From: Candidatus Parvarchaeota archaeon | Lineage (GTDB): Archaea > Nanobdellota > Nanobdellia > JAFCGN01 > DAOVEB01 | DNA: 24,000 nucleotides | Assembly: GCA_030669205.1 (NCBI GenBank) | Contig: DAOVEB010000002.1 | Coordinates: 1-24,000, forward strand | Direction of reading: 5' to 3' | Part shown: positions 8,475-24,000 of the stretch, in pieces | How the letters are laid out: each line of letters begins with the position of its first letter | How positions within the stretch are numbered: the stretch's first letter is position 1 | Translations under genes and position numbers: made by a program | Notes under the pieces: model-generated | What the model was told of the DNA's origin: nothing | Databases searched by the model: none | The model's input: the letters and a program-made list of their open reading frames with translations, nothing else

Positions 8475-11400
8475 CTATCCACCACCTGTTGTGAGCGTTG
8501 GCTCGAACTGGACATCAACCGGCGGGCAGTCCGCAGGGCAGGTGTAGCAGCGCTCGTTGTCTTGGCATATCCAGTCGCCGCAGGTTGTTGCAGCCAGCGA
8601 GCTCTGCCTCTCCTCCACGTATATCGGCACAGGCTGCCTTATGTAGGGGTTGACAATGATGTCAAATTGGACCTCCCAGGACATGGGCATCATGTACGGG
8701 TTGAAGTACCTTGTGTTCAGATGTTTGTAACTTCCACTGTCCACCATGCAGTTGATGACGTAGCCCTGCCTATCAAGGTTGAGCATGATGTCCTTCTCAT
8801 CCTTGTCCATGACGCAGGAGAAGTCGTTGTTGCTTATTCCACATGTGAAAGGTTCGACAAGCCGCGCCTCGCCACCCATTGAGTTCCTCAACGTTATATC
8901 CGGTGAGTCGATGTCAGCCTCCTCCTCAACGGTCGAGAATCTCAAGAGGTGAGAGCCGGTTCTCTGGATGCCAAGTGAGATTTCAAGTTCTCCGCGCTCC
9001 ATTCCAGTTCCGCAGGTGGTTCCAAAGACGTTCTCATAACCCTCCGAATAACCTTCGCAGTTGGAAGTGGTCCCTGAGTGGAGCCATGTCGATGCGTAGT
9101 ACTGCATCGAGCCGTTGTTGTTTATACCTGCAGATTCACACCTGTACCTATCTGGTGTGCAGAACGATATGGTTTCATAGTCCAGAATGTAGTCGTCGCT
9201 GGGTAACATGTCCAGGGAGTCAGGTAACTGGCTGTATATCTCCCTGTGGGATGTCCAGAGGTCAGAGAGGTACGCGTCTGAGACGACGGTGGGCCTGATG
9301 TCCAGGCTATAGCTGAACTTGGATGAGACATTGTAGAAGACACCGAACAAATTGGCCCAGACCGCTCCGTCGCCTGAAACCTGCCCGCTGTCGCCGTCAG
9401 TGCTGTAGCTTCCAGCAGACAAACCCGAGCTGTAGACTGTCAGGGGTGTTGCTGGATACGCAGACTGGAAGATAGTGTGTTCAACTGGTGGCTGGTTTGA
9501 GGGGTACGTATCCAAGAGGTGGAAGTTCTCGAACAGGGCAGGAATGTCCTTGTAGACGCATATCTCCCTCTCGACTGTCTGGTACCTTGAACCAGGCACT
9601 GATGGACACTCGCTTTGATCCAACAGATAGACTGAGCAGTCCACAAAGTACGGGGCAGACGAGTTATACCTGATGCTCATGCACTTCTTCAACGGCCCGT
9701 CCACCGTGAACTCCACCTCCTGGTTCTCAGACTCTGTGTCGTCCCACATGATGCCCTTTCCAACCCAGCCCGTGCCATTTGGGGAGGTGTCAGGCACCAC
9801 TGTCAGGTTGCTTATGCACGGCCCCCTATCCCAGCAGCTGAGGGAGTATGTCGCATTGACCAGAGTGTTCTCAATCACATATCTGCTGTTGTCCCCCAGC
9901 ATCGAACCCCATGACGTCTCATAGGAGATTTCAGGGAAGCCTGTGCCGTAGTAGACGTCCACAGACGTAGTTGAGGTGTCGGGTACTATCACTATCTTGC
10001 ACTGGGAGTCGCCTGATGAGAGAACCTGGTGCGGGATGGCTTCCAAGCCGTTGTAAACCACTATGCTCGCGCAGTCCGGTGCCAACACTGTTATCTCCCG
10101 CGGGATTCTCACGGATGAATGGACGTTGCAGGTGTCCCTTCCGACAAATGTTCCAGTTGAGACCGTATCAACAATAATGATTGGGTCGTTGGTTATGTAT
10201 GTTTTATCGGTTTCATTATCATAATAGACGTCCAAAACCGTGCCAAGTATCAGTGGATTCAGATTCCTATCTGTATTGACGTCTGGGTCCTCCGCATAAA
10301 ACTCAAGAAGGAACTGTTTGAAGTTGGGCGCGTCTGCGGTCTCTCCAAAGTTGTTCTCAAAGCTACCTCTCGCACCGAGGGTTACTTCACCACCTATAAC
10401 AGAATAAACTGTGTCATATTCGTTCAGGATTCCACAGCCAGGAGAATTTGCGCATTCATACTCTATAACCTTAAGATAACCATCGAACAGATTTCCCTCG
10501 TCCCTTATCTCAAGTATTGGTGAGACCGAAAGACTAGTTGTCTCGCAGTCTGCGGTGCAGTTTATCTTCCACAACACGTCAATGTCCATTGCAGACGCGA
10601 AGTTGTCGCTGTCGTCGAAAACAAAGACGCTCGCGCTGTTCAGGTCTTCAAGTTCGTCTAGGGTGAAGGTCACGATGCCATCACCATTGGTCTCATCATC
10701 TTTTGTGTGCGACTCAGTCAGCACGCACTCGCAACCCTGGAGGATATGACCAGAACCACATGCTGGGGCCTCTGTAATCAAACAGTTACACGTGCCTGTT
10801 ACGAACTGGCCGCTGGGACATACGGGCTCGGAACTGTCTGAGCACACGCCGCCTGTGCAGGTCGCAGGAGGCTCGCAACGCGCGCTGGACGTTGTCCCAC
10901 ACTCGCACGTTCCGGTGTTGAGAGTGTATCCAGAGTCGCAGGTTGGTGGTGTTCCGGGTGCGGTGGAAGTGTAATGGAGCTTCACTGTGGCTCCGGAAAC
11001 CGGGACAGTGCCGCCTATCTTCCTTACGACCGCTCTTGTGACGTCGTAATCCTTGCCGATATTTATGTGAGTTATACCGTCTGCGTCCGTTATGTTTGAC
11101 GTCACGTTCACAATCCCTTGGCACGCGCATCCAGAGAGCTGGTAGCCAAAGGAGCAGTTGGGGGTCACAGGAAAACCATCACTTAGACACTGCATACCAC
11201 TGCTGTTCACACATCTCCCAATCTCATCTTCTACATAACAGACACCAGCGAATCCATCGGTATCACATTCACCGCAGGTCGCGTCTTCCGGTTCGGTCAA
11301 GCTGAACAGCATCAAGGTATAGTCGCTGAGTCTCTGGCCAGCAGGGCCCAAGAGTACGGCTTCGTACGGGTCTTCAGAGGCAGCGACCAGACCCATGTCC

Positions 11401-14400
11401 AAGGTACCGTCAACTTCAAACTGGTACAACGTTCCGTCAAAGTTCATCGTCACGTTGAACAGTGGCGGCGAATAGGCCTGCCTCTCGAGAAGTTTGAGTG
11501 TGAGCGGCTCCTCTGTCGTGTCCATCTCAAATATGTAGTCGCTTGAAAGGGTTGTAGACTCACACACTGGTTCAGAGTTGACATCTGGCTGGGAGGTCAT
11601 GAAACTCAAGACATCGGCTCCGTGCGCAGAGATGACTGCTGAGAAGGAATCGTTGAACGTTGAGGATATGGCCGTCTCCCCGCGGACCAGGTTGAGGTTC
11701 GCGTCCAATGTTATTCCATACGCCCTTGGCAGGAAATAAAATCCTGTCCAGGAGTTTATCTTGTGGAGCGAAGGGTAGAAGTTCTGCACAGCGTCCGTTG
11801 GCTGGGACTGGCCCGTGCTGGTCCACACCACGTCAAATGAATCAGAGTCAAGCCTGGACGCAAAGCAATAGAGACAATCCGTACACGTGAGCGTCTCCAC
11901 CTGCTCGCATACTAGCATTGAGCCGTCGCAGCCAAGAGCTGTGTATCCATCATCACATCCCTTGGAGCCAGACGGTATTATATCACACTGGACTGGTGAG
12001 GTGCCGCAGACACCGTCAAAGTCTTCGCAGTCTATCCTGTACGAAGCATTTGGTGAGAGGGTGCCTGTGAAGTCTATCTCCGAGTCGCTGGCTATGCTAC
12101 TGACGTATGGCACACAGTCGCACCCACTTTTGTAGTAACCTGCGGCACAGGAGATGGTGTAGGTCCTCTCGCACTCGCAGCTTGACGGGTTGAACGTGTA
12201 GCTGCTTGGGCACTGGCCGTCGCCTGATGGGGGGACCGCACTGAACGGAGCTATTGCAAAGGGTGTATAGAAGAAACCACCGCTTGGCACGCAGTTGCCA
12301 TAGCCGTCGCAGGTCTCGTCAGAGCCGCAGAGTGAGTAGGAAGTGTAGCAGCTGTCGCAGGTGCAGTCGCCGCTGCATCGGTCGCAGAGCGAGTACTGCT
12401 CAATCTCAGTAACAACACGCCAGGTGTGAACTTCAGTGAACTCCATGTCATATACCAAGACATTGTCAAAGTTGCCGTTGAAGTCGAAGCGCGTGAGGTA
12501 GTCGTATGGTTTGGCTGGAGCTGGGGGTTGTGTGAGTGAGGTTCCGATGTCATAGAAGTAGAGTTCGATTGTCCTGTCCCATTCGCTCGCCGGCATTGAG
12601 AGGGTGAAGGTTACGTTCTCTCCAGGCGTCAATATACCATCCCAGACCGGTTCTGTGTCAGATTCGAAAACCTTCTCCATGTTTGCTGTCCTAGCAACGG
12701 CATTGGTTTTCCCAGACCAGAACCCAAGGAGTTTTCCACCACCAAACGGAGCCAGTTGGGTAGTGCCATCCAACCACTCTATTGTACCACCAGTATTAGT
12801 TACACAAGAGATGACTCCACGGTCAACTATGCTACAAATGGCATCATTAGATACGCTCGTCAGGTCGGTAAACTTGCTGGCACCAACATCCATATCAATG
12901 TCCAGTCCTCCATGGGTCACCATAACAAATGGGTCGTCTATATCTTCAGTTCCCGTGTTCTCAACAACCACCTCAATCATCACCCTGTCACTGTCATTGT
13001 TGAAGCCGACGTTTCCGCCCCTGTCCGAACAATCCGAGGATGTGGTATACCTCGTGTTTGAGTTGCAGTCATGGTACTGCTTGTAATTCCCGGCAGAGTT
13101 GAACACTCCGACTTCGGTTATGCGGGCCTCGATGTAGCCGGTGGTTGACCAGCCGTATGGGTCACAATCGGCACCAGTAAGTAACCCTCTATTCAAATTG
13201 CTACAGTAACCATTTCTACAGTCCGCATAATGTTGCCCATCATAGTCCAAAGAAGCGTCGCAGGTGCAGATTTCCTCGTCGGCGTAGTAGACCTTGTCCG
13301 TCATGAACGGGACATTATATGGATTGCCGCATGTCTCGCCGTATATACAGATGTTTTTCATGTATTCTTCCAACTCTGCGATACAAATATCCGATGCATG
13401 ATATGGTTGATAATAGACTTGGTGGAGGTAGCTAGGGCTATAATACTCATCGGCCCTAGGACAGGAATGTTCCATTATATCCAAAAACTCATCATAAGAA
13501 GCCATTGGTGAGATTGTAGAACCATCATTGGCTTCACAGTACGGCTCACAATTTGGGCACATGCAGTACATTCCAGCAGCAATGGAATCCCACCTGCATC
13601 TTGTGTAGTCATAAGGCGGAATGTCACAAATGCTATCCAAGCAACCCGGTTGCACCAATGGAACAGGGAAATATATGTAATCATCATCGCTGCAGGAGTA
13701 TTCAAGACTGTAGTATGCACCTGGCAAGTCCTGATATGTAAACCTGCTAGGAAGTCTTGAAATATCGTGTGACCCGTCTCCTGTTGTCATGGAAGGTCCA
13801 CTTGGATTCATAGTAAGCTCAATCGGGTCTATATCACCAATATCAGCAGATACCGGCATCTGAGTACCTATCTTCATCTCCTGTGCGTTCTGGTCATAAT
13901 AGTCCATAATCCAGCCACTATGTGAAAAATAAAATAGTGTACCATCATGTTTCACAGCAACTGCCCCACAATCAAGGTTGTTGGTGCAAAAATCATACTG
14001 TTCATCTGTGCCGTCCTCATCTAAATCCAATTCAGCGTATCCCAAACAAACATCACTGGAAGTCGGCTTTGTGCCACTTGGTCCAGTCATGTCGCAGACA
14101 ACATTCTGGAAAGTAGCTAAATCAGGTCCAGATGCAATTGAATTTTTCTTCACAGGGAACTGGTAATCAAAGCTGTAATCCGCGCTGCTCCTGCCGCAGG
14201 ACCACGCAGTGTACGCAGGACTGTACTCACAACTGTAGCAAGTGCCACCGTCTGCACAGCCGGAATACAGGAAATCTACAGAATGATCGCCATCCACTAC
14301 CAAGAGGTTGTTAGGACTATATGCAGTAGAACCACAGTAATATGGTGTCACTGGTGTCTCTGGTGTAGTTTCAGTTGCTCTGCAATGCTCATCACACTGA

Positions 14401-14822
14401 GTAGTTGGGGACCCTCCCTGAAATACACATTGCCCATCCATACATCCAGCACCGCTGCAGAGCTCCTGATCCAAACACCAGCAGTTTACATAGATGCCTG
14501 TATAGGTTTGAGAAGCAGGGCATCCTGGTATACCCAAACCAGCACAACTTGGAACAAAGCTGTATTCGCATCCTTGATTAAGGTCTGTCCACTGGTCGGC
14601 TGTGGTGTATGTCACCTGGTCTATACATCCGCTAATTGGCAGACCGGTGCCTTCTCTGAAGCAGTAACCTGTACCTGATGGGCACAGATTTGTACACGCA
14701 TCACACTGAACATAGCTAAGGACCGAGACATATTCTCCGCAGTCAACCTGGGAGTATACCCCCTTAATTAACAGTAGACCTAAGGACAAGAGACATACTA
14801 TGAACAAAACTCTCTTGTTCAT
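8475..14822 (-). CDS. Secreted giant cysteine-rich protein (2115 aa), mosaic of Cys-knot-like arrays and Cys-poor beta-rich segments.
   Basis: One uninterrupted 6.3-kb frame. Sec signal MNKRVLFIVCLLSLGLLLIKGVYS/QVDC. GGAGGAG Shine-Dalgarno site 8 nt upstream. Recurrent C-x-[SAD]-G-x(4,5)-G-(T)-C-x-C modules. C-terminal CGDWICQDNERCYTCPADCPP module. Confidence 0.9.
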   Translation of the reverse strand: MNKRVLFIVCLLSLGLLLIKGVYSQVDCGEYVSVLSYVQCDACTNLCPSGTGYCFREGTGLPISGCIDQVTYTTADQWTDLNQGCEYSFVPSCAGLGIPGCPASQTYTGIYVNCWCLDQELCSGAGCMDGQCVFQGGSPTTQCDEHCRATETTPETPVTPYYCGSTAYSPNNLLVVDGDHSVDFLYSGCADGGTCYSCEYSPAYTAWSCGRSSADYSFDYQFPVKKNSIASGPDLATFQNVVCDMTGPSGTKPTSSDVCLGYAELDLDEDGTDEQYDFCTNNLDCGAVAVKHDGTLFYFSHSGWIMDYYDQNAQEMKIGTQMPVSADIGDIDPIELTMNPSGPSMTTGDGSHDISRLPSRFTYQDLPGAYYSLEYSCSDDDYIYFPVPLVQPGCLDSICDIPPYDYTRCRWDSIAAGMYCMCPNCEPYCEANDGSTISPMASYDEFLDIMEHSCPRADEYYSPSYLHQVYYQPYHASDICIAELEEYMKNICIYGETCGNPYNVPFMTDKVYYADEEICTCDASLDYDGQHYADCRNGYCSNLNRGLLTGADCDPYGWSTTGYIEARITEVGVFNSAGNYKQYHDCNSNTRYTTSSDCSDRGGNVGFNNDSDRVMIEVVVENTGTEDIDDPFVMVTHGGLDIDMDVGASKFTDLTSVSNDAICSIVDRGVISCVTNTGGTIEWLDGTTQLAPFGGGKLLGFWSGKTNAVARTANMEKVFESDTEPVWDGILTPGENVTFTLSMPASEWDRTIELYFYDIGTSLTQPPAPAKPYDYLTRFDFNGNFDNVLVYDMEFTEVHTWRVVTEIEQYSLCDRCSGDCTCDSCYTSYSLCGSDETCDGYGNCVPSGGFFYTPFAIAPFSAVPPSGDGQCPSSYTFNPSSCECERTYTISCAAGYYKSGCDCVPYVSSIASDSEIDFTGTLSPNASYRIDCEDFDGVCGTSPVQCDIIPSGSKGCDDGYTALGCDGSMLVCEQVETLTCTDCLYCFASRLDSDSFDVVWTSTGQSQPTDAVQNFYPSLHKINSWTGFYFLPRAYGITLDANLNLVRGETAISSTFNDSFSAVISAHGADVLSFMTSQPDVNSEPVCESTTLSSDYIFEMDTTEEPLTLKLLERQAYSPPLFNVTMNFDGTLYQFEVDGTLDMGLVAASEDPYEAVLLGPAGQRLSDYTLMLFSLTEPEDATCGECDTDGFAGVCYVEDEIGRCVNSSGMQCLSDGFPVTPNCSFGYQLSGCACQGIVNVTSNITDADGITHINIGKDYDVTRAVVRKIGGTVPVSGATVKLHYTSTAPGTPPTCDSGYTLNTGTCECGTTSSARCEPPATCTGGVCSDSSEPVCPSGQFVTGTCNCLITEAPACGSGHILQGCECVLTESHTKDDETNGDGIVTFTLDELEDLNSASVFVFDDSDNFASAMDIDVLWKINCTADCETTSLSVSPILEIRDEGNLFDGYLKVIEYECANSPGCGILNEYDTVYSVIGGEVTLGARGSFENNFGETADAPNFKQFLLEFYAEDPDVNTDRNLNPLILGTVLDVYYDNETDKTYITNDPIIIVDTVSTGTFVGRDTCNVHSSVRIPREITVLAPDCASIVVYNGLEAIPHQVLSSGDSQCKIVIVPDTSTTSVDVYYGTGFPEISYETSWGSMLGDNSRYVIENTLVNATYSLSCWDRGPCISNLTVVPDTSPNGTGWVGKGIMWDDTESENQEVEFTVDGPLKKCMSIRYNSSAPYFVDCSVYLLDQSECPSVPGSRYQTVEREICVYKDIPALFENFHLLDTYPSNQPPVEHTIFQSAYPATPLTVYSSGLSAGSYSTDGDSGQVSGDGAVWANLFGVFYNVSSKFSYSLDIRPTVVSDAYLSDLWTSHREIYSQLPDSLDMLPSDDYILDYETISFCTPDRYRCESAGINNNGSMQYYASTWLHSGTTSNCEGYSEGYENVFGTTCGTGMERGELEISLGIQRTGSHLLRFSTVEEEADIDSPDITLRNSMGGEARLVEPFTCGISNNDFSCVMDKDEKDIMLNLDRQGYVINCMVDSGSYKHLNTRYFNPYMMPMSWEVQFDIIVNPYIRQPVPIYVEERQSSLAATTCGDWICQDNERCYTCPADCPPVDVQFEPTLTTGGG

Positions 14823-14883: not shown

Positions 14884-17697
14884 TCATGGTATCTCCTCCA
14901 TCTTGCCGTATGGTCCGTAGGCAGGCGCGCATTCCTCCTTAACGATGATATCCCTGGTTTTGAGGTTTTCAGATTCGTCATAGTAGTAGCACTCGTAGGT
15001 CTGCAGAGTGTCTGGCTGGTACTTCACACATATGCCAGGTGTGATGAGCCTGCAGCAGGGCGAAATTATCCTGCCGTTGATGTCCCTGATAGTCTCGTCA
15101 TGGGTTGGCAGGCAGCAGAAGTTGTTCGCGTTGCACACCATCTGTATGTCGTTGACGCCTATCCTCACAACATTGCAGTCGCATGCCTCGTCATCGGTTC
15201 CAGACAGGCATATCGAACCTATTTCATTCAGGTTTTTACATATCTCGCAACTGTACGGAGACGTGACCTCAAAGGTGCTGTTCTCTGCAAAGAGGAGCTG
15301 TATTGGGAGGCCAGCAGCCTGCGCCCTACCTGTCGGGTTAAAGGAGTAGTCGGCCGAATATGTGAGCTGTCGCGACTCGCCTGTGCAGTGGTCGGTCACG
15401 TTGACGTACAGGCTCTTCAGTTTTATCCTCCACGGATAGCCTGTGAGCGCCTCCAGTTTCGCTGGTGAGACCTCCTCGAACTCGCGGAAGAATTCTGCCC
15501 TCAGCGCAGCGTCGAACATGTTCTCGCACTCCTCATTCGGACAGAACGCGCAGTTGAAGACCTCGACGTCGGTCAGGTTGTACTTTGCGCACTCCATGTC
15601 GTCGTATGTGTAGTCCGTGCCTTCCAAGCCCATGTTCCAGATGAGCCTCGTGAGCCAGTCCTGCTTCGGGAGTATGAGGTCTTCGGTTGCGAAGCACTCG
15701 CAATCAGCCTCTCTCACGTCAACTTTGCTCTGGTCAACGGTCCTCAGATTGCAAGCCAGGTCCTTCTTGCAGTAGTAACCTGCTGGATACGTTGTGCTGT
15801 CAATGGTTCTCTCCTCAAAGTGCTCCATGCTGTAACCACTTGGGCAAGTGGCAGTTGGATGGCAGGTGCAGCCATCTGAAACCCCTGTGCAGGAGTTCAG
15901 CTCGCACTGGCAAGTGCCTGAAACTAGGGTCCCAGACGCGCAGTTTGCGTCAGTGGGTGTATAACATGTTATGACATTGCCATCGCACCTCGGAACCTTT
16001 CCACCTGTGCAGAAATCATAGTACAACACATCAATACCATCCAAACATGTCGGAAAACTTGAAATACAGATGTAGTTATAAGTTCCAGGACAGCCACCGA
16101 AGACGTAGGAGTAACTTTCTCTGTAACATTTGCCAGAGTCACATGTTATTCCTAGGCAGGTCGCATCTGTATAGCTGCAACTGTCATAACCTTCAGTCCC
16201 ACAGTAGTACTCCCCATCGCTGTACACGATGTTTTCCGGCTCGCAGTCACTGGGGTCACGCACGCACTTCCCTGAATCACACCGGTCCCCGGAAGAGCAG
16301 GCAGAACCGAGCGTCTCTCCTTCTTTGACGAATACCTGGAGCGTCTTCATGGTGACCGCGTCAAGTATGTAGTCAATCCTGTGTTCAAGCTCGTACTCCT
16401 GCCACCCAATATAGTCTGCGTACTTCCCGGCATACACGCCACTGACATAGTCCTTTGAATAGGAATACAGGTCTGGGAAACCTCCCTTGTAGCCGACCAT
16501 CGAGAGAAGTGAGAGGTAATTGGTGAGGTCGAACCTGCCTGCTGTGATGTTCATGCAGAGCCTCTCCCCCTCGCCCGGTATGAAGGTATACCCTATTTCG
16601 CCTTTGTCCACGTTGATTTCTCCAATTCTGGTGTCAACAAAGTCGAACTTGTCCCTTCTGATGTCATAGTATATCCAGTCCTTGCCGAGCTCCATGACCT
16701 TCCTCACAGCAGGCTCGAGGTAGACGGACCTTCCGGTCAAACTGCCGTACGGGTCGATGAAGACGTGGTACCTTGCTGTGCCAATCTGAATCTCGTCACC
16801 CGAACCCACAGAAGAATCCCTTATGGAAGGTGCCACATCATAGCAGTACTCGTTCGTCTGACCTATGTCAAAGGTATAAGTGGTGTCACCCTCTCCCTTG
16901 TATGAGTAGACCCCAAGATACTTGCCGCCGGCAGCCATGCATCCGGTGAAGTTGTAGCCTGAAACGTCAAACTCGTCAGTTAATGTGAGCTTTGTCCTGT
17001 TCATCGACCTGAGCTCGAGCTGGATGTTTTCTATTGTAACAGTTTCGCCGAGCGCGGATGAGACCATCTCGAGGTTCGGGTCATCGGTCGGGTCGAACTC
17101 AACTGTGCCGTTCAGATAGTAGTAGACGTCATAGGTATGCTTCAGGTACGGCCTCGAGAGCTCGGGGTCGGATATGTATTTGCTGCCGCCTGTCTCCTTG
17201 AAAACGAGATATGTCTCTGACTGCAGAGAGCCGGAAGGTGCGAGGGCGGATGCCCTTGAGAACGGGAAGTAATCGGCGAGGAGCGAGTCAACGGTCTCAA
17301 TCAAATCATTCTCATCAGGTATGCAGAGCTCACCACGGTTCTTCCAGTAACGGACAACGGTTTCGTCGTCAACTGTGGCGAAGAAGTCCGGAACTGGCAG
17401 GAACGGGAGAAAGTCGGCAACATCGATGTAGCGATAGCTTTCGGGAATCAAACACGTGTCCGGGTCCCCACCACCCACAAGACCGGTGAAAAGTATCGCC
17501 CTGTCAAGGGCATAGCGCCTCTCCTGGTCAAAGAGCAGCCTTGCTGATTCGCCGGATGAGATTGTTGTCACGAGCCTGCCCCTTATGTTGGTTGAGCCGC
17601 CGATTGTGGCTGTATAGGAGAATGTGTTCATCAGGGCCCAGAAGGTAGCAACCGCCATCCCGAGTATTATTATGAGGTTTGTCTGTGCACGCTTCAC
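14884..17697 (-). CDS. Giant protein (937 aa) with a pilin-like (class III signal-like) N-terminus and Cys-rich central and C-terminal regions.
   Basis: GTG start at 17697 immediately after the TAG of the upstream gene. The N-terminus (V/M)KRAQTNLIIILGMAVATFWAL resembles the 129-aa pilin N-terminus KAQGLPLNTIVLGALAVLV. A dense Cys block is encoded at 15694-16299. Confidence 0.8.
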   Translation of the reverse strand: MKRAQTNLIIILGMAVATFWALMNTFSYTATIGGSTNIRGRLVTTISSGESARLLFDQERRYALDRAILFTGLVGGGDPDTCLIPESYRYIDVADFLPFLPVPDFFATVDDETVVRYWKNRGELCIPDENDLIETVDSLLADYFPFSRASALAPSGSLQSETYLVFKETGGSKYISDPELSRPYLKHTYDVYYYLNGTVEFDPTDDPNLEMVSSALGETVTIENIQLELRSMNRTKLTLTDEFDVSGYNFTGCMAAGGKYLGVYSYKGEGDTTYTFDIGQTNEYCYDVAPSIRDSSVGSGDEIQIGTARYHVFIDPYGSLTGRSVYLEPAVRKVMELGKDWIYYDIRRDKFDFVDTRIGEINVDKGEIGYTFIPGEGERLCMNITAGRFDLTNYLSLLSMVGYKGGFPDLYSYSKDYVSGVYAGKYADYIGWQEYELEHRIDYILDAVTMKTLQVFVKEGETLGSACSSGDRCDSGKCVRDPSDCEPENIVYSDGEYYCGTEGYDSCSYTDATCLGITCDSGKCYRESYSYVFGGCPGTYNYICISSFPTCLDGIDVLYYDFCTGGKVPRCDGNVITCYTPTDANCASGTLVSGTCQCELNSCTGVSDGCTCHPTATCPSGYSMEHFEERTIDSTTYPAGYYCKKDLACNLRTVDQSKVDVREADCECFATEDLILPKQDWLTRLIWNMGLEGTDYTYDDMECAKYNLTDVEVFNCAFCPNEECENMFDAALRAEFFREFEEVSPAKLEALTGYPWRIKLKSLYVNVTDHCTGESRQLTYSADYSFNPTGRAQAAGLPIQLLFAENSTFEVTSPYSCEICKNLNEIGSICLSGTDDEACDCNVVRIGVNDIQMVCNANNFCCLPTHDETIRDINGRIISPCCRLITPGICVKYQPDTLQTYECYYYDESENLKTRDIIVKEECAPAYGPYGKMEEIP

Positions 17698-18117
17698 CTA
17701 ATCACCCACACTCATATATTTGAACGGTCTCCCTCCTCTGAAAAGCTCATAGGGGTTGAACACCGAGATGGAGCAGTCGCCGGTTATGCTGCCCTCGTAT
17801 ATCTTCTTGTCAGAGTAGTACTGGAGCAAAAACAGCCTGTTTGGGTTCACGTACTCTATGGGAAGTCCCCCATAGTACTCCGAAAGGTCTGCGTAGGAGC
17901 CGATTTCCTGGAATCCCAGCTCATACCTTATGTAGTCGTTCCTGTACAGCGACGTGAGCATTGCGCTGCACTCCTCCATCTTCTCCGTGTTCACAACCTG
18001 GAGGAGTATGGTCTGCTTCGAAGACTCGGCAAAGAGACTATACGTTATTATAAATGCGGAGCTGGAAACTGCCAGAAGTATGATTTCGATGAACGTTATT
18101 GCCCCTTTTCTGTTCAT
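17698..18117 (-). CDS. Pilin-like protein (139 aa) with a class III signal peptide.
   Basis: MNRKG/AITFIEIILLAVSSSAFIITYSLF has basic residues, Gly, then a hydrophobic helix with Glu at +6, which is type IV pilin-like. TAATG overlap with the upstream gene. Confidence 0.75.
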   Translation of the reverse strand: MNRKGAITFIEIILLAVSSSAFIITYSLFAESSKQTILLQVVNTEKMEECSAMLTSLYRNDYIRYELGFQEIGSYADLSEYYGGLPIEYVNPNRLFLLQYYSDKKIYEGSITGDCSISVFNPYELFRGGRPFKYMSVGD

Positions 18118-18941
18118 TAGAATCCACCTCCCGTGAAAGATACAGAGGTGCTACCGCCGACCCCGTACTTTATTGTGGTTGTGAGTATGCCCACGCTGTC
18201 CCTGACGAAAGCCCCATCTTCATCAACGTATCTGATGACAACTGGCACGCTGGACGTATAGACCGAAGACTTGTCCTCAAGGTAGTCTATGAAATAACTG
18301 TCAAGTGTGTAGAGACCTTCGGGTTCCGGTGCCTTGAAGATGAGAGAGACATCCGCGCCCTGGCCAACAATTGCGAGAGCTATATTCAAAGCTATATCAG
18401 TTATTACGACGGCTGTTGAAATAGCACCTGACCAGAACTTTGTAATCTCCTTCGTTGTCTCGACAAAGAGATGAGCCTCTGTCATGTTCAGCTGAGGACT
18501 TGTGCTCAGACGGTGGTTTTTGAGTCTCCGGTTGTCCTCAAGGTCCCTCAACTCAAAGTCGATGACGTAGAGGCTGTAGGTGGTGTCGCCAACCGCGCTC
18601 CACGGAACCTCGGTTATATCGTTGAAGAAGTAACTCTGGATGCAGCCGAAGTATCTGTCCATGTTGAACTTCCTCTCATCCACCACTCCTGGGTAGACCC
18701 GCCTGATTGTACGGATTTTGTCGTTCGTCTCGTCGTAACTCACAGCGCCTGTCTCATAGGCGAAACAGTCGGCAGATGAATAAGCGCGAGTAGCGAGAGA
18801 ATTGGCGAAGCTCCTGGCATCGGCCCAAGTCGAGATGATGGTGATGTCGCTGAACTTGTAGCTTATAGACAGCACCATGAGTGAAAAGAGCATCATGGCT
18901 AGGGAAGCGTTCACGTATGCCATGATTTCTATCTCTGCCAT
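18117..18941 (-). CDS. Membrane-anchored or secreted protein (274 aa) with an N-terminal hydrophobic helix (non-canonical pilin-like); ends in TGGGF.
   Basis: N-terminus MAEIEIMAYVNASLAMMLFSLMVLSISYKF. The ATG lies 3 nt after the upstream TAG, with a GTGAGGT Shine-Dalgarno-like site upstream. No family recognised. Confidence 0.7.
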   Translation of the reverse strand: MAEIEIMAYVNASLAMMLFSLMVLSISYKFSDITIISTWADARSFANSLATRAYSSADCFAYETGAVSYDETNDKIRTIRRVYPGVVDERKFNMDRYFGCIQSYFFNDITEVPWSAVGDTTYSLYVIDFELRDLEDNRRLKNHRLSTSPQLNMTEAHLFVETTKEITKFWSGAISTAVVITDIALNIALAIVGQGADVSLIFKAPEPEGLYTLDSYFIDYLEDKSSVYTSSVPVVIRYVDEDGAFVRDSVGILTTTIKYGVGGSTSVSFTGGGF

Positions 18942-18944
18942 CCT

Positions 18945-21410
18945 CTAAACCTCACAATAACATACCCCTGGTAAAGGCAAGGTGTTAAAAATAGTATTGC
19001 ACCTAGCCCCTGAGAGTGGTTGCAGATTGCTCATATCTCCCGTGAACTCCAGTTCGAACGGGAAACACCTTCCATTACCATACCCTTCGTTGTTACATAT
19101 CTCAGTGCAACCACTGCATTCGATAAATTCGACAAGACACAAAGGAGGTGGGCAGTCAGTTGGACACTGCCAGCTGTCCTCTCCCTCATCACACACCCCA
19201 TCCCCACACTTATAACTCTCCGTGAGTATGTCGTTCCAGTTCATGAGCACAACTGGCTCGCAGCCATTGTTCATGATCTTGACTTCTGCACCGACCCTAT
19301 CGGCTTTGAGGGAGCATTTATAGTACATCGACTGTAAAAATCCTGGTTTCAGTTCGAGGGACCTCGACTCCAGGGGCATTTCAGGTATTATGGTGTTCAA
19401 CGTGTTGCTCAGCACATCCAGGGGTGATTCCATCCCGGCAAGGCTGAAGATGAAGTCAAGTCCGTCACCGAAGAAAGGTATGTCCACTGTCACAGATGGA
19501 AGGAGGTGTGATGTATGCTTGAACCAGTAGGTGTTGCCGCTCTCCCTGAGCTCCCATAAACTCGGATTAATGTCATAGCCGGTGGCTATAAGCATCTGCT
19601 CCAGCAAATTGGGTTCGACTATCTGACCGTCCTTCAGGGTGTAATCTATGGTGAGATTTTCAAATTGGACATCGACACTGCAACCGATGTCGGCAAAGTC
19701 ATAGCAGAAGAGTTTGAAGTTGCCTTGCTCCTCACCCTCCTCGTTCCTTGCGAAGTGGTTCTCGCACAGCATGCCGTTTTCATAGGAAAAGAACCTCGCA
19801 GGTGTGACGTAAACGTCAAAGGTCTGGTCGCTGCCCTTGCACGCCTTCTTCACATAATCCGCTATCTCCCCAACTCCAATTGGATAATAGCTGTCTCCAT
19901 CGCCGCACAGGGTGTCAAAGGTCTCCTTGTTCTTTGAGAGGACAATTTTCCCATCCGACATCTCCAGCGAAGGCGTCTCGTAATTGCCTCCAAAATAGGA
20001 GAGCTGGTTGCGCAGGAAGCACATGTCCTCCCCATTGACACCATAGCTCTTTACAGCCTTTATCTCGTCCTCGTCAGTGGTGAAGTCGATGGTCACAGCA
20101 CCATATTTGCCGGCGTAGAAGTCGTAGAAGCTGTCCGCGCTGTCCAGGTCAACTTGGAACAATATTTGGTTGCCTGTAAGAAAGTCAACCAGTTCCCACA
20201 GCGGGTCATCTGTCCTGCACGACCTGTAAGCTGCGTAGCCGGTTGCAGTCGTCTGTGCCCAGAGAGGCAGGTCCCTGTAGTACCTCAACTTCGAGGCCCA
20301 GTCAGGCATGGACCTAAAGGGTGTGGCTGCCATCCACTTCACTGGTTTGAACCTGCGAACCCCGTCAGAACCAACATAGGTGTACTCTATATAGCTGTTG
20401 TACTTCCTCAGGTCCTCGGCCTTCACGTGGTTCAGCCAGTCGTCCATATCGAGGTCACCGGTGTGGGTCAGGAAGTAATGGTTCATCCCGTTCTCCATAA
20501 CATCCAGTCTGTCTTCGGCTCTTTTTAGATGGCTATATGATGTAGCATATACCCCCCTGCCGGCACCGGGAACACCGTCTATCATGTCCTTAGTGTGTCT
20601 TGCCATAGCTCCGTTAGGGTCTGCTATTATGTCATCCATTATCGATTTGGCATAGTCATCCGCATCATCGTAGTGATTCTTTAGGAACTTCGAATTATCG
20701 AAGGTAGTATCCCCTCTTCTTATTGCGTCCGCGATAGCACCCTGTGCCTCGTGTCTTGGCCTGCCCACTGCATTCATCGAGACAATATCATCGACCTCCA
20801 TACCTCTCACCATGCCGAGCCTGCTCTTCACATTGGTAACCCAGTCGCTCTTCCTGGCCTTTATATCATCTATCCAGTCCCTCAGCTTACTAAGTCTGCT
20901 CTTCGCCTTTTTTTCTATCAACTCCTCTGTCGCCTCTTGCATCCCTTCGGTAACCATATCTCTTGCCTTATCACCTGCCGTATCCTTAACCTCATTTAAC
21001 AGCGCTTTCTTCGCCTTGCCCGCCACCGCCTTCAAGGTTCCGAAGCTCATGTAGATGCACGCGGTCCTCGGGGTGTAGAGCATGCGCTCGTCCTTTGTAA
21101 AGGTCACAGCAGCGCTGACGTCGTCTATCTCCAGCCCCCCCTCGCACACGAACTTTCCGAGCCTCTGGCTCCAAGAGCATGCATGGGGCCCGCGGTACTC
21201 GACATACGCGTCCTCCGGCAGCGAGTAGAGCAGTGATGTCAAGGCTTCAAGCTCGTTTGTGAAGTGTATTATAGGCATGTTCCTCGCTGTGTAGAAGACG
21301 CCTGTCGTGTTCGCATAGTTTATGGACAGGACGAGAAACGCTCCTGAGAGGAGAAGCGTTCCAATCGTTATGGTGATATATGCCTTCCTGGACAGAACCG
21401 GTCTGGACAT
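18945..21410 (-). CDS. Giant mosaic protein (821 aa): pilin-like N-terminus, 279-aa Cys-free highly charged segment, beta-rich middle, C-terminal CGDGVCDEGEDSWQCPTDCPPP module plus a small Cys-knot-like tail.
   Basis: N-terminus MSRPVLSRKA/YITITIGTLLLSGAFLVL, compared with the mini-pilin MRA/VSLTIGTVVALIIALLV. TATA box 23 nt upstream. The CGDG module is encoded at 19143-19208. Confidence 0.8.
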   Translation of the reverse strand: MSRPVLSRKAYITITIGTLLLSGAFLVLSINYANTTGVFYTARNMPIIHFTNELEALTSLLYSLPEDAYVEYRGPHACSWSQRLGKFVCEGGLEIDDVSAAVTFTKDERMLYTPRTACIYMSFGTLKAVAGKAKKALLNEVKDTAGDKARDMVTEGMQEATEELIEKKAKSRLSKLRDWIDDIKARKSDWVTNVKSRLGMVRGMEVDDIVSMNAVGRPRHEAQGAIADAIRRGDTTFDNSKFLKNHYDDADDYAKSIMDDIIADPNGAMARHTKDMIDGVPGAGRGVYATSYSHLKRAEDRLDVMENGMNHYFLTHTGDLDMDDWLNHVKAEDLRKYNSYIEYTYVGSDGVRRFKPVKWMAATPFRSMPDWASKLRYYRDLPLWAQTTATGYAAYRSCRTDDPLWELVDFLTGNQILFQVDLDSADSFYDFYAGKYGAVTIDFTTDEDEIKAVKSYGVNGEDMCFLRNQLSYFGGNYETPSLEMSDGKIVLSKNKETFDTLCGDGDSYYPIGVGEIADYVKKACKGSDQTFDVYVTPARFFSYENGMLCENHFARNEEGEEQGNFKLFCYDFADIGCSVDVQFENLTIDYTLKDGQIVEPNLLEQMLIATGYDINPSLWELRESGNTYWFKHTSHLLPSVTVDIPFFGDGLDFIFSLAGMESPLDVLSNTLNTIIPEMPLESRSLELKPGFLQSMYYKCSLKADRVGAEVKIMNNGCEPVVLMNWNDILTESYKCGDGVCDEGEDSWQCPTDCPPPLCLVEFIECSGCTEICNNEGYGNGRCFPFELEFTGDMSNLQPLSGARCNTIFNTLPLPGVCYCEV

Positions 21411-21433
21411 CGGTCTAATTTAATATTTACATC

Positions 21434-21441
21434 AATATAAA
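21434..21441 (-). promoter_or_regulatory. TATA box (TTTATATT) 23 nt upstream of the 821-aa gene ATG, in a 60-nt AT-rich spacer.
   Basis: Minus strand reads aaacTTTATATTgatgtaaatattaaattagaccgATG. Confidence 0.45.
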
Positions 21442-21454
21442 GTTTAATACAAAT

Positions 21455-21484
21455 ATTATATCTTGTAAAATTATATCTTGTAAA
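21455..21484 (-). repeat. Perfect 15-bp tandem direct repeat (attatatcttgtaaa x2) spanning the stop codon of the 219-aa gene.
   Basis: Read directly; units are 21455-21469 and 21470-21484. Confidence 0.9.
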
Positions 21485-22130
21485 TCGCCAGAAACGGTTC
21501 CAGAGGACCGCCTGTGTCCACCTTTTCAAAGCTCATGCCGCTTATCTCTATATCGGCTCCTTTTGCATAGATGCCGTCCAGCACCTCGTAACCAGGGTCC
21601 ACGTCAACCGCAACAAAGAAGCACTCCACAGGCACACCTATGCAGCACATCGAACCATCCCCAATCTCATAGAGGTCAGTGTTGGCAAGGTCGTTGCAGG
21701 CATTTGACCTGTCAGTCTGGATGTCAGAAAGTGTTGTCATTGCATCTGATACGATATCGTAACCCGGGAAAGACGCTGGGGGCGCAGTCTTTCCCATGCA
21801 GAGGCAGAACCCCCCATCACAGTTCTCGTAGGAGCAGCTGCTCTCAGGTCTGAACTTGTTGTTTTCGTTTAAGGTCTCAAGTGTTGTATCACATGACTCA
21901 CTGCCATAGAGCTGTATTATGAAGTATGTCTGGTAGAGCATGGGTCCAGCCGAACTCCCAGGCTCACTGCTGCAGGCTGTAGACATAGCTCCCCTGCTCG
22001 ACACAAACTTGTCGTATTCGGTGTTGGTGCTGGTAAAGGAGTTGATACAAGTGAAGACAAACATTATGACTATTACGCTGAAGATTATCTGGTACATCGG
22101 GCCAAAAAACGGGATTAGCCCTTTCCTCAT
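21471..22130 (-). CDS. Pilin-like Cys-containing protein (219 aa) with a class III-like signal.
   Basis: N-terminus MRKG/LIPFFGPMYQIIFSVIVIMFVF. ATGA overlap with the upstream gene. Shares the motif C-x-G-x-[FV]-C-L-C-[MI]-G with the 257-aa neighbour. Confidence 0.75.
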   Translation of the reverse strand: MRKGLIPFFGPMYQIIFSVIVIMFVFTCINSFTSTNTEYDKFVSSRGAMSTACSSEPGSSAGPMLYQTYFIIQLYGSESCDTTLETLNENNKFRPESSCSYENCDGGFCLCMGKTAPPASFPGYDIVSDAMTTLSDIQTDRSNACNDLANTDLYEIGDGSMCCIGVPVECFFVAVDVDPGYEVLDGIYAKGADIEISGMSFEKVDTGGPLEPFLAIYKI

Positions 22131-22900
22131 CTTATCACCTCAAAATCCGTCTTTATCACACCCTCTGTGGGATAACCGGTTGCGCCCGATGTTCCAATCT
22201 GGCTGTTCGGCCTGACCCAGAGGAAGAGGTTGTTCTCGCATCCACCAGAGCAGGAACCGTCGTTAACTGTTATGTACGTTCCTTCGCCGATCCTGCCGCA
22301 GTTTATGAGGGTTATGTTCGGACGTCTTTCCCAGGCTCCTGCAAAGAAGGCCGAGCAGAGGGTTGAAAGTGTTGCGGACGGGTCTGCGCTGAGCTTGTAG
22401 ATGACCTTCCTCCTAGCAGACACATTCTCCAGTGATGATTCCAAAATAGGTACCCATGAAGGTGCGGTGCCGGACCAGTTGAGGACGCATGTACGAGAGT
22501 CGCACCTCGGACTGCCATATGGGCTGGGCGAGCATATCTCCAGGTCTTCACAACCGACGTTGTTGAACGTGCCTATGCACAGACAGACGTTTCCAGGGCA
22601 TTCCGAACCCATCTGGCTACCCGGAAGCACGGCGCCGTTGCGGTAGAGCTCCTCTATGAAGGGGGTGCAACCCTGGTCAAAGCGCAGTTGTATGGCGAAC
22701 TGGTCGGGCGCGAGTCTGAACGGCTCAATTGAGGTGGTTCCCCTGTCAATTGCGAGTGCGAACTCTTCTGCAATCTCGTCTGCCCTCGCCTCAACCGAGG
22801 TGCCCAGGATATTGGAGAGGTTGGCAAGTATCGGTGGTATCACAATCATCAGACCAGCTAGCATCAAAAGACCAAATATGGCATAGACAAGATTCACCAC
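22127..22900 (-). CDS. Membrane-anchored Cys-containing protein (257 aa), paralog of the 219-aa protein.
   Basis: GTG start (22900 or 22897), with AGGTGGTGA Shine-Dalgarno-like sequence overlapping or upstream, so the exact start is uncertain. N-terminus VNLVYAIFGLLMLAGLMIVIPPILANLSN. Internal ECPGNVCLCIGTF compares with ENCDGGFCLCMGKT in the 219-aa protein. Confidence 0.7.
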   Translation of the reverse strand: MVNLVYAIFGLLMLAGLMIVIPPILANLSNILGTSVEARADEIAEEFALAIDRGTTSIEPFRLAPDQFAIQLRFDQGCTPFIEELYRNGAVLPGSQMGSECPGNVCLCIGTFNNVGCEDLEICSPSPYGSPRCDSRTCVLNWSGTAPSWVPILESSLENVSARRKVIYKLSADPSATLSTLCSAFFAGAWERRPNITLINCGRIGEGTYITVNDGSCSGGCENNLFLWVRPNSQIGTSGATGYPTEGVIKTDFEVIR

Positions 22901-22914
22901 CTTCTATCATCAGA

Positions 22915-23070
22915 TTAGAAGGGCCACAGATTAAAAAGGTTGCCGGAGGAGTTTGTGGTATCGTTCGCCATCTGGAAAAGCGGAGGGATGAAGAAGAAGA
23001 GCACTATCATGACGAGGAGTGCGATTATGAGTGCGACAACTGTGCCGATTGTGAGGCTGACGGCTCTCAT
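22915..23070 (-). CDS. Mini-pilin-like protein (51 aa); not in the ORF track (below size cutoff).
   Basis: Hand translation gives MRAVSLTIGTVVALIIALLVMIVLFFFIPPLFQMANDTTNSSGNLFNLWPF*. ATGA overlap with the upstream 47-aa ORF. Basic-Ala N-terminus plus a hydrophobic helix of about 25 aa. Short tail with two N-x-S/T sequons. Confidence 0.65.
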   Translation of the reverse strand: MRAVSLTIGTVVALIIALLVMIVLFFFIPPLFQMANDTTNSSGNLFNLWPF

Positions 23071-23210
23071 GACGGCACCGTGCTGTTTATGAAGCCGAGT
23101 TGCCTGAGGAAAAAATCGCCTATGAAGAATATCGCGAGGACCAGGATGATGAGCGCGAACACAATTACCACAAGCGTCTCAAGCGACAGGCCGATGGCCC
23201 CCCTTTTCAT
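23067..23210 (-). CDS. Mini-pilin-like protein (47 aa), Flp/Epd-like class III signal; not in the ORF track.
   Basis: Hand translation gives MKRGAIGLSLETLVVIVFALIILVLAIFFIGDFFLRQLGFINSTVPS*. Has a KRG/A cleavage-type motif, Glu in the early helix, and an N-S-T sequon in the tail. TATA-like box 21 nt upstream. Confidence 0.65.
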   Translation of the reverse strand: MKRGAIGLSLETLVVIVFALIILVLAIFFIGDFFLRQLGFINSTVPS

Positions 23211-23231
23211 GCGGAATCAAAGGCACGCGGG

Positions 23232-23239
23232 TTTAATAT
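23232..23239 (-). promoter_or_regulatory. TATA-like box (ATATTAAA) 21 nt upstream of the 47-aa mini-pilin ATG; candidate promoter of the long downstream operon.
   Basis: Minus strand reads gggATATTAAAcccgcgtgcctttgattccgcATG. Confidence 0.35.
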
Positions 23240-23254
23240 CCCTTACGGTAGGAC

Positions 23255-23284
23255 AATAAAAAAAGAGAGAAAACTAATAAAAAA
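23255..23284 (-). terminator. Two oligo-T tracts (TTTTTTATT ... TTTTTTTATT) about 35-65 nt downstream of the 129-aa pilin stop.
   Basis: Read directly. Oligo-T termination in archaea is established knowledge. Confidence 0.5.
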
Positions 23285-23318
23285 CGCGTTTGGGAGTTTT
23301 TGTTGCCGTTTAGGTTGT

Positions 23319-23708
23319 TTAAATGGCTGTGCAGCAATATACATGGTTGGTTGCGTCGTCCGCGCATGACCCGCCTTTGATTGTTATTATTTCTCCACCT
23401 GAAAGTGAAAAGGCGCAACCGGTTGTTATGTAGTCGCCGCAGTCGGTTGTCGCAGTGTTGCTTGGGTCAGGGTCAGAGCAGAAATTGCTACCCCTCGCTG
23501 CTGCAACCGCTGTTGTCTCTGAAGAGTATATGTTGCTGAGTCCTGTGCAGTATGTCTGACAGTTGACGTACGCGTCAGGAGCAAGTCCGAAGATGCTTCT
23601 GAACATGTTTCCTATTCCTGGGACGAAAACTGCTGCCAAGATTACTAGTACTAAAACTGCTAATGCTCCCAAAACAATTGTGTTTAATGGTAAACCTTGT
23701 GCTTTCAT
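23319..23708 (-). CDS. Candidate major pilin (129 aa): class III signal peptide, hydrophobic N-helix, small 8-Cys globular domain.
   Basis: N-terminus MKAQG/LPLNTIVLGALAVLVLVILAAVFVPG. It has its own consensus TATA box and its own terminator. The C-terminal domain has 8 Cys, so up to 4 disulfides are possible. Confidence 0.8.
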   Translation of the reverse strand: MKAQGLPLNTIVLGALAVLVLVILAAVFVPGIGNMFRSIFGLAPDAYVNCQTYCTGLSNIYSSETTAVAAARGSNFCSDPDPSNTATTDCGDYITTGCAFSLSGGEIITIKGGSCADDATNHVYCCTAI

Positions 23709-23768: not shown

Positions 23769-23900
23769 TTAAAATATGGTCCCGGGGAACGAACTGTTAA
23801 TCATTCCGATAATGGCCGGCGCGCCGAAGAAGATGAGGTAAATCACTATGATGATGATTCCAAGGATTAGGGGGATTATGTACTTGAGCGCGAGGTTCAC
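23769..23900 (-). CDS. Possible small hydrophobic protein (43 aa, GTG start) resembling the N-terminal module of the 257-aa protein.
   Basis: Hand translation gives (V/M)NLALKYIIPLILGIIIIVIYLIFFGAPAIIGMINSSFPGTIF*. It begins VNL like the 257-aa protein and has an N-S-S sequon after the helix. There is no ATG start, so the call is tentative. Confidence 0.3.
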   Translation of the reverse strand: MNLALKYIIPLILGIIIIVIYLIFFGAPAIIGMINSSFPGTIF

Positions 23901-23907
23901 AGCGCCC

Positions 23908-24000
23908 CTAGAACTGAAAGGTAAAAATCTTGGCAATCTGACCAATTATCGACTCACCTCTCTGGTTGAGGAAATCTATCACGAAGAGGAATGCGACGAG
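23908..24000 (-). CDS. 3' end of another small or hydrophobic ORF entering from the right edge.
   Basis: Hand translation gives ...LVAFLFVIDFLNQRGESIIGQIAKIFTFQF*. The architecture (hydrophobic helix followed by a short tail) resembles the mini-pilins. Only 30 codons are visible. Confidence 0.3.
   Translation of the reverse strand, partial: LVAFLFVIDFLNQRGESIIGQIAKIFTFQF

Follow-up and report, generated by a model that had tools for sequence, protein, structure and literature searches.

Layout of the A2 and B2 genes

The window analysed in this study is the whole 24,000-nucleotide (nt) stretch of contig DAOVEB010000002.1 from a Candidatus Parvarchaeota archaeon (positions 1 to 24,000), in which all genes lie on the minus strand, and the subject is a pair of overlapping small genes within it, designated A2 and B2. 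A2 (23067..23210, minus strand) encodes a 47-amino acid (aa) helix-only pilin-like protein, MKRGAIGLSLETLVVIVFALIILVLAIFFIGDFFLRQLGFINSTVPS, and B2 (22915..23070, minus strand) encodes one of 51 aa, MRAVSLTIGTVVALIIALLVMIVLFFFIPPLFQMANDTTNSSGNLFNLWPF. The A2 stop codon and the B2 start codon share the sequence ATGA at 23070..23067. Two open reading frames (ORFs) of these lengths joined by an ATGA overlap had been translated by hand in a preliminary description of the window, and both were reproduced exactly. That description called the genes invisible, which holds for an ORF list with a 60-aa cutoff, from which both are absent, but not for public collections (NCBI, Logan), where the exact A2 and B2 sequences, together with a one-substitution variant of each, are already predicted proteins; public gene callers predict A2 and B2 on every contig carrying them.

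The two proteins have a common plan, consisting of a basic leader of 2-4 residues ending in G or A, a 19-residue core and a tail of 16-23 residues. A2 starts with the leader MKRG and the motif AIGLSLET; its transmembrane (TM) core spans residues 13-31, and a single sequon (NST) lies in its tail, DFFLRQLGFINSTVPS. The B2 leader is MRA, residues 10-28 form its TM core, and its tail, PPLFQMANDTTNSSGNLFNLWPF, has two sequons (NDT and NSS). All of the N-x-S/T sequons listed in the preliminary description are present. The mean Kyte-Doolittle hydropathy of the 19-residue cores (A2 13-31, B2 10-28) is 3.3-3.5, and the precursors of 47 and 51 aa would give proteins of about 43-48 aa after putative cleavage, each with a single predicted TM helix.

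At the coupling junction (23067..23079, minus strand), a Shine-Dalgarno (SD)-like GGTG at 23079..23076 is followed by a 5-nt spacer and the ATGA in which the B2 start lies over the A2 stop. An ACGGTG SD-like element with an overlapping stop/start (ATGA, TGATG or TAATG) is conserved in three homologous loci (L005, L006 and L007), and the arrangement marks A2 and B2 as translationally coupled through the stop/start overlap. A programmed frameshift fusing A2 and B2 was rejected, as the geometry of the overlap varies by lineage (ATGA, TGATG, TAATG, overlaps of 7-13 nt and a 1-nt gap).

Upstream of A2, an element resembling a transcription factor B recognition element and TATA box (BRE/TATA-like; CCGTAAGGGATATTAAA, 23232..23250, minus strand) ends ~22 nt before the A2 ATG and is a putative promoter. 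In an alignment of the window, L006 and L007 extending from the stop codon of the preceding 129-aa gene to the A2 start, the block CCGyAAGGrATATTAAACC is nearly invariant, and nearby synonymous sites are saturated. The ~22-nt spacing of this block from the ATG implies a leaderless A2 mRNA. T-runs and a conserved TTTTCTTAGTTTTCTCTCTTTTTTT block (23255..23286, minus strand) lie downstream of the 129-aa gene as a likely archaeal terminator, and the T-runs likely split the transcript of the 129-aa pilin from the A2 operon.

A2 and B2 are real genes under purifying selection

Orthologues of A2 were found as P0019 (87% identical), in L006 and in L007, and its last 18 codons are present in L005. Orthologues of B2 were found in L005, L006 (P0014) and L007 (P0015), with 23 of 51 alignment columns invariant. 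L006 and L007 are contigs of the Joint Genome Institute (JGI), and in L005 the 257-aa neighbour of B2 is 64% identical to that of the window. The A2 and B2 frames are open in all homologous loci (L005, L006 and L007, the A2 of L005 being partial). Nei-Gojobori (NG86) analysis gave proportions of nonsynonymous (pN) and synonymous (pS) differences of 0.19 and 0.70-0.73 for A2 (omega, the ratio of nonsynonymous to synonymous rates, 0.08-0.11) and of 0.19-0.26 and 0.64-0.83 for B2 (omega 0.12-0.18 where the synonymous distance dS is finite), and substitutions are concentrated at codon position 3 (e.g. 9/9/26 and 14/4/34 across the three positions). The conservation check proposed in the preliminary description therefore returned pN far below pS with intact frames in related contigs. 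The adjacent 257-aa gene evolves faster than the mini-genes (pN 0.24-0.31), and the GC content at third codon positions (GC3) of A2 and B2 is 0.69-0.73, like that of neighbouring genes. Invariant within the window clade are MK[KR]G[AV]IGLSLET, DFF and FIN-x-TVP in A2, and M[RK][AG]xS[LM]T[IM]G, PPL and N[SD]TTN[GS]SGxLxNLWPF in B2.

The interval could alternatively be non-coding, serving only as the 5′ untranslated region (UTR) or leader of the 257-aa gene with both ORFs as chance open frames, which would suit ORFs that are short, hydrophobic and lack a database family match. This is extremely improbable given that the frames are kept across lineages despite saturated synonymous change (omega ~0.1-0.18), and that the starts, the coupling junction, the sequons and the C-terminal motifs are all conserved, whereas the antisense frame is not and a match to an RNA family in Rfam is absent. 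No frameshifts or stops were found in homologous loci, amino-acid conservation is present, and the codon-level conservation of A2 and B2 refutes the reading as a 5′ UTR only. A2 and B2 are real genes under purifying selection. Two other candidates for the same interval were discarded: an antisense 176-aa ORF across both mini-genes (22729..23259, plus strand) is spurious, with 1-4 stops in L005-L007, and a non-coding RNA or riboswitch found no Rfam match at E<=1 and no tRNA in the A2-B2 interval.

The N-termini of A2 and B2 match that of the neighbouring putative pilin

Class III signal peptides were identified with a FlaFind-type rule, [KR][GA][ALIFQMVED][ILMVTAS] plus a hydrophobic stretch. 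Both A2 (RGAI at residue 3) and B2 (RAVS at residue 2) satisfy the strict rule, as do all window-clade orthologues, so that the class III signal check suggested in the preliminary description came out positive for both. A hydrophobic stretch of ~20 residues (alpha1-N) directly follows the putative cleavage site in A2 and B2, and the sole changes at positions -2 and -1 within the window clade are exchanges of K and R and of G and A. Five ORFs of the window pass the strict rule with a hydrophobic stretch (A2, B2, their paralogue B1, and the 219-aa and 139-aa proteins), and the 129-, 821- and 937-aa proteins are near misses.

An hhalign comparison of 17 mini-proteins with 51 pilins of the 129-aa family showed a match with a probability of 96.4% (E 1.2e-9, score 50.4), in which ~30 N-terminal residues are aligned in register (AIGLSLETLVV with AQGLPLNTIVL). 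Control scores were 22.6 for the reversed profile, at most 19.8 for column shuffles and at most 25.7 for shuffles of the N-terminal block. By this comparison the N-termini of A2 and B2 are homologous to the N-terminus of the neighbouring 129-aa putative pilin, and the in-register profile match together with its controls indicates that the mini-proteins correspond to the N-terminal module of a pilin without the head. No match to Flp_Fap, Class_IIIsignal, Pilin_N or TadE was found among the 17 mini-proteins at E<=10. Assignment of A2 as a VirB2-type pilin, TrwL, was rejected, as the weak match (E 0.016, TM segment only) is compositional.

The Cys-rich pilin and the second mini-gene pair

The gene preceding A2 (23319..23708, minus strand) encodes a 129-aa Cys-rich putative major pilin, which begins MKA/QGLPLNTIV, has 8 Cys and carries no sequon. 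Its family comprises 61 clusters at 50% identity among 1.84 billion representatives and conserves a [KR][AGS]-QGLP[LIM]N-IV N-terminus and six Cys, without a Pfam match. The AlphaFold2 (AF2) model has a predicted local distance difference test score (pLDDT) of 79.8, with a predicted head of three short helices and a hairpin. The monocistronic gene has a promoter-like element and a T-run terminator of its own and a GC3 of 0.45 versus 0.6-0.73 in its neighbours, and occurs elsewhere in tandem multiple copies, for example in L010 and L014.

Upstream of it lies a second pair of mini-genes, A1 and B1. B1 (23769..23945, minus strand) encodes a 58-aa paralogue in which a leader ending SSRG is followed by AVNLALKYIIPLILG and a tail ending MINSSFPGTIF, with one sequon, and has orthologues in L007, L008, L012 and L013 (blastp E 1e-9). 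The B1 leader, of 12-17 variable and rapidly changing residues, is encoded in a different frame over the conserved end of A1 and precedes an invariant [KR][GA]A; judged from this pattern of substitution, it looks like a classic class III leader of the cleaved type. The window end truncates A1 (23908..24000, minus strand), a 49-aa paralogue of which the 3′ portion (MKRGVLTREAILL...IAKIFTFQF) is included. The complete gene is present on L003/L004, with the A1/B1 pair at L003 612-900, and orthologues, all with sequon-free tails, are found in L007, L008/L020, L009, L010, L012 and L013. B1 starts ~38 nt inside A1, in a different frame.

The properties of the 129-aa gene bear on a further explanation, in which the mini-proteins are the major subunits of a Tad/Flp-type filament, perhaps as an A/B heteropolymer, and the 129-aa protein is a minor or tip subunit. 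Tad pili are made solely of helices of 40-60 residues, and the four mini-genes per cluster are more conserved than the 257-aa neighbour (pN 0.19 versus 0.24-0.31). In distant lineages, the A2 and B2 N-termini are near-identical with a charge swap at position +7, where A2 has E and B2 has R (AIQLGTETIII versus AIKLGTRTIII; L011 1239-1546, L009 3874-4235 and L023 319-626). This swap suggests a complementary helix pair in those lineages and would suit a heteromeric one in the filament; the window-clade B2 has Gly at +7 instead. However, the monocistronic organisation of the 129-aa gene with its own promoter-like element and terminator, its distinct codon usage and its tandem multiplication in L010 and L014, as for a major subunit, all stand against this assignment of roles, and the mini-protein tails (16-23 aa, with Pro and Gly) do not reach the length of the polar half of a Tad pilin. 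We regard it as decidedly unlikely.

Sequons are conserved in the tails of the mini-proteins

The A2 sequon N42-x-T is invariant (NST, NGT or NNT), as are N36-[SD]-T and N40-[GS]-S in B2. Tail sequons are present in 8/8 lineages for A2, 8/8 for B2 and 6/7 for B1. The background frequency in the large proteins of the locus is 0.0073 sequons per residue, giving a probability of ~0.11-0.18 of at least one per tail, and the frequency in the tails is ~ten times this background. The tails of A2 and B2 are, on this conservation, probably N-glycosylated; small pilins of Methanococcus maripaludis are known to be N-glycosylated (PMC3875500). The preliminary description had also linked the mini-proteins to the 257-aa protein through a common IPP..N-x-[ST] segment. 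The segment is present in the window, but it is not conserved in the 257-aa orthologues, from which the sequon is absent and in which the IPP is only partly kept, and the link was rejected.

The mini-genes belong to a conserved, probable filament gene cluster of DPANN archaea

Downstream of B2, in the same operon or cluster, are genes for proteins of 257, 219, 821, 274, 139 and 937 aa (14884..22900, minus strand), which are N-terminally membrane-anchored and Cys-rich and show no Pfam or NCBIfam family match. Positional orthologues are present in L006, L011, L013, L017 and L020. The 821-aa gene (18945-21410) is represented in L006 (2027-4512) by two ORFs of 469 and 354/372 aa, which could come from a genuine split, a frameshift or a misassembly.

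Related clusters were located with a degenerate DNA pattern for the N-terminus of the 129-aa pilin, M[KR][GA]QG.P.N[ST]... Seven genome contigs, all DPANN, and ten metagenome contigs matched; the genome contigs belong to Nanoarchaeota (L008), Ca. Haiyanarchaeum (L009), Nanoarchaeia (L010), Woesearchaeota (L011 and L012), Parvarchaeota (L013) and Aenigmatarchaeota (L014). All pattern-matched contigs except L014 keep one gene order, L010 being without the A2/B2 pair. This order consists of a Cys-rich protein of 470-670 aa, A1 (~50 aa) and B1 (~50-66 aa), then one to three pilins, A2 (~48-59 aa) and B2 (~46-52 aa), and finally orthologues of the 257-, 219-, 821-, 274-, 139- and 937-aa proteins of the window. 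The synteny recurs in L006-L013 and L017-L023, with blastp orthology across clusters at E values of 1e-8 to 1e-52. A search of 631 ORFs with a window-clade A2 profile recovered the A2 at the corresponding position in L008/L020 (E 4.7e-10) and L013 (E 1.8e-6), and one with a window-clade B2 profile recovered the B2 of L013 (E 5e-6) and then the B1 family.

Other searches were less productive. A homologue search with the 257-aa protein returned only itself and one 64% relative, a scan of genome contigs with the 274-aa alignment gave no confirmed loci, the exact window lineage being apparently absent from the GTDB species representatives, and a scan of metagenome contigs with the B2 alignment likewise gave no confirmed loci, a 51-aa query being one that may fail tblastn confirmation. 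Public contigs of the window lineage are Logan assemblies of 1.4-3.5 kb that end within the upstream Cys-rich gene, and the lineage is present in sequencing runs SRR26080959-62.

Directly upstream of the module in L022 and L020 lie genes for a T2SSE ATPase (PF00437, E 3.8e-20, 72 bits) and a T2SSF-like protein of 690 aa (PF00482, E 6.7e-5, 23.3 bits, slightly below the Pfam cut-off). A platform protein with 45% identity occupies the equivalent place in L017, and L012 starts with the C-terminus of one. The adjoining T2SSE ATPase and T2SSF-like genes in these relatives mark the cluster as a probable type IV filament (TFF) locus. The module is syntenic in seven independent contigs or genomes, and wherever a relative of the cluster comes from a named genome, that genome is of DPANN origin.

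Proposed role of the mini-proteins

The combination of a class III signal-peptide-like N-terminus, a hydrophobic alpha1-type helix and a sequon-bearing extracellular tail is best read as that of subunits of the Tad/Flp and Epd-major-pilin kind. We estimate a probability of about 60% that A2 and B2 are helix-only, pilin-like subunits heading an accessory operon of a DPANN TFF cluster; cleavage, glycosylation, filament incorporation and a minor-subunit role are what we infer for them. The mini-pilin interpretation of the preliminary description has in this respect held for the real, coupled genes, for the plan of basic-G/A leader, helix and sequon tail, and for the location in a pilus locus, whereas the size is not extreme, the genes had not been overlooked and the IPP link is not conserved.

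In the mechanism proposed, the conserved promoter of its own would drive A2 as a leaderless mRNA, and translation of B2 would be coupled to that of A2 through the overlapping stop/start, giving a fixed ratio. Both proteins would be inserted in the membrane N-in/C-out. A prepilin peptidase would then remove the short leader, a likely step in A2 and B1 but an uncertain one in B2, and the tails of A2 and B2 would receive N-glycans. Their helices would pack in the hydrophobic core of a filament built from the 129-aa Cys-rich pilin, in which A2 and B2, alongside the large pilin-like products of the downstream genes, would most likely serve as minor or priming subunits.

Several observations weigh against this assignment. 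There is no Pfam, NCBIfam or PDB-sequence match to A2, B2 or their relatives, even at permissive thresholds, and the homologous 129-aa family is itself called pilin from its N-terminus and TFF context alone; one of 51 members weakly matches Arch_flagellin, and the model and its head have no Foldseek match in the PDB. The B2 leader has only 2-3 residues, and the family alignment sets the R/K of B2 at the -1 glycine of A2. Distant B2 orthologues (MVGA..., MVEGA...; L008, L009 and L011) lack the basic -2 residue and fail the strict rule, as does the A2 orthologue of L013 (Parvarchaeota), which starts MFET with no leader and a stop codon just upstream. A1 tails carry a sequon in 0/7 lineages. The 24-kb window itself encodes neither an ATPase nor a platform protein, and no prepilin peptidase or AglB either, and the linkage to machinery comes from synteny with other lineages only. 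By sequence alone, a cleaved pilin and an uncleaved bitopic membrane protein are inseparable. For the L013 A2 orthologue (3128-3274), a genuine leaderless form, a frameshift and a misassembly are all conceivable explanations.

A2 and B2 could accordingly be uncleaved bitopic membrane proteins that act as small accessory subunits of the assembly platform, outside the filament, where they might, for example, stabilise or gate the ATPase-platform complex or dock the large downstream proteins. The minimal B2 leader, the missing basic -2 residue of distant orthologues, the wholly leaderless A2 orthologue of L013 and the lack of a match to any known pilin family are all in keeping with such a role, as are the further small TM ORFs of the cluster (44 aa and 60 aa), which lack a class III motif, and the translational coupling, which suggests a fixed 1:1 complex. 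However, homology of the N-terminal 30 residues to a pilin, in register and far above the composition controls, argues for a filament subunit, as do the strict retention of K/R-G/A in A2, B1 and window-clade B2, the long fast-evolving leader of B1 that ends in an invariant [KR][GA]A, and the sequon-bearing extracellular tails that are typical of archaeal pilins. On balance, a platform role is the less likely reading but a serious competitor.

A more elaborate version of the subunit assignment is that the four mini-proteins are obligate heteromers, in which coupled A/B helix dimers form a helix-only glycosylated filament core or detachable alpha1 'stems' for separate heads. The dimers would draw on the complementary charges at +7, Glu in A2 and Arg/Lys in B2/B1 in several lineages, and the leader-less, TM-anchored 257-aa and 274-aa proteins would be candidate heads. 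This proposal is unlikely; if true, it would represent an archaeal split-pilin system like Geobacter PilA-N/PilA-C, for DPANN host attachment.

With A2 and B2 taken as helix-only filament subunits, the mini-proteins extend the helix-only pilins beyond Tad/Flp and Epd, and offer concrete candidates for experiments on the filament core, on priming and on adhesion, as well as targets for annotation models. DPANN archaea are ultra-small and mostly host-dependent, and their attachment to hosts is poorly understood. The analysis defines a conserved, entirely unannotated, probable type IV filament cluster whose fixed core is a Cys-rich pilin gene flanked by four mini pilin-like genes, and of whose ~12 structural or accessory proteins none belongs to a Pfam or NCBIfam family. 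The literature searched contained no account of these mini-genes or of the DPANN cluster. For general biology this is an incremental addition that introduces no new principle, and its main value lies in opening a DPANN surface-filament cluster to experiment.

Other genes of the window and of related clusters

Related clusters carry two further kinds of mini TM ORF, one of 36-44 aa (…W[LI]xFLVALVI…), which separates the platform gene from those for the Cys-rich proteins, and one of 50-60 aa (MGLGDALIVILFIGLILAIIFIPPVRDF…), located between B1 and the pilin. Examples are found at L008 101-235, L012 887-997, L020 2811-2945, L011 68-250 and L019 219-401, and neither kind has a class III-like leader.

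The distal end of the cluster (4321-14822, minus strand) encodes three very large or Cys-rich secreted proteins, one of 2115 aa with 116 Cys, one of 302 aa with bacterial TSP3 calcium-binding repeats (PF18884) and one of 1082 aa with 103 Cys and a G9 run. No counterpart of the three was present in the related loci examined, and a role as lineage-specific adhesins is possible. A small 2x[4Fe-4S] ferredoxin-like ORF (MPRPVIDKKKCTNCGTCINICP…CIGCKACEVQCP; 4101-4286, minus strand) lies between the 1082-aa gene and Alba; its listed 99-aa version with a GTG start is probably over-extended into the 1082-aa gene.

The far end of the window encodes L11, Spt5/NusG, FtsZ, FKBP and Alba, which identify the DNA as an archaeal chromosome, and the nearest solved structures of its L11 and FtsZ are Methanocaldococcus and Pyrococcus entries. 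Ribosomal protein L11 (570-1250, minus strand) has a highly acidic, Glu/Ala-rich C-terminal extension of ~66 residues beyond the ~160 residues that align to archaeal L11 structures.

Comparison with known systems

Tad pilins are 40-60 residues long without a globular domain, and the Tad lineage is thought to be derived from archaeal systems (PMC10710030). Like the Tad/Flp pilins (type IVc, as in PilA of Caulobacter crescentus), A2 and B2 are helix-only proteins with a class III-type leader, within the same range of 40-60 residues, and in related lineages their module adjoins genes for a T2SSE ATPase and a T2SSF-like platform protein, as Tad clusters contain; Tad loci also often contain several tandem small pilin genes. 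They differ in that Flp_Fap (PF04964) is not matched at E<=10, and in that the G/XXXXEY motif is absent from the mini-proteins, which have Glu at +6/+7 followed by Thr and no Tyr. Their tails also carry conserved N-glycosylation sequons, and here two coupled pairs of genes flank that of a larger Cys-rich pilin, in place of genes for a sole filament subunit. The resemblance to bacterial Flp pilins noted in the preliminary description therefore extends to the helix-only build and the size range, but not to the Flp_Fap profile or the EY motif.

The major pilin of M. maripaludis, EpdE/MMP1685, has 74 aa (62 when mature) and is N-glycosylated (PMC3875500), and the Epd major pilin has no globular domain (preprint 10.64898/2026.04.22.720090). 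The Epd pilins (arCOG06620) are compared here together with the small pilin-like proteins MMP0528, MMP0903 and MMP1283 (67-76 aa), and their TFF 'system 1' is reported from methanogens, Thermococcales and some DPANN (PMC3875500; preprint 10.64898/2026.04.22.720090). Both the Epd pilins and the mini-proteins are archaeal, very small and N-glycosylated or sequon-bearing, with pilin genes that are not necessarily beside the ATPase and platform genes. In contrast to Epd, a DUF361/Class_IIIsignal type in which +1 is Q and +5 is E, A2 and B2 have A, V or I at +1, and in their mature form (about 43-48 aa) they would be 10-20 residues shorter. There is no A2 or B2 match to PF04021 (Class_IIIsignal/DUF361; EppA substrates), and the QXSXEXXXL motif is not found: GLSLETLVV in A2 keeps the S-x-E spacing, with G in place of Q and a preceding residue of I rather than G/A, and B2 has no Glu.

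PilA-N of Geobacter sulfurreducens is likewise a short helix-only pilin, encoded next to separate extracellular-protein genes (PMC10710030). There is no sign that A2 and B2 pair with a separately encoded head, and the likeness is one of analogy only.

A mature length of 40-45 aa had been called extreme in the preliminary description, a view that does not stand beside Tad pilins of 40-60 residues (PMC10710030) and a headless Epd major pilin. Given the failed sequence tests for Flp_Fap and DUF361, A2 and B2 form a new family, and by their pilin-like sequences they are a new sequence family of the known small helix-only pilin kind, at the short end of its size range.

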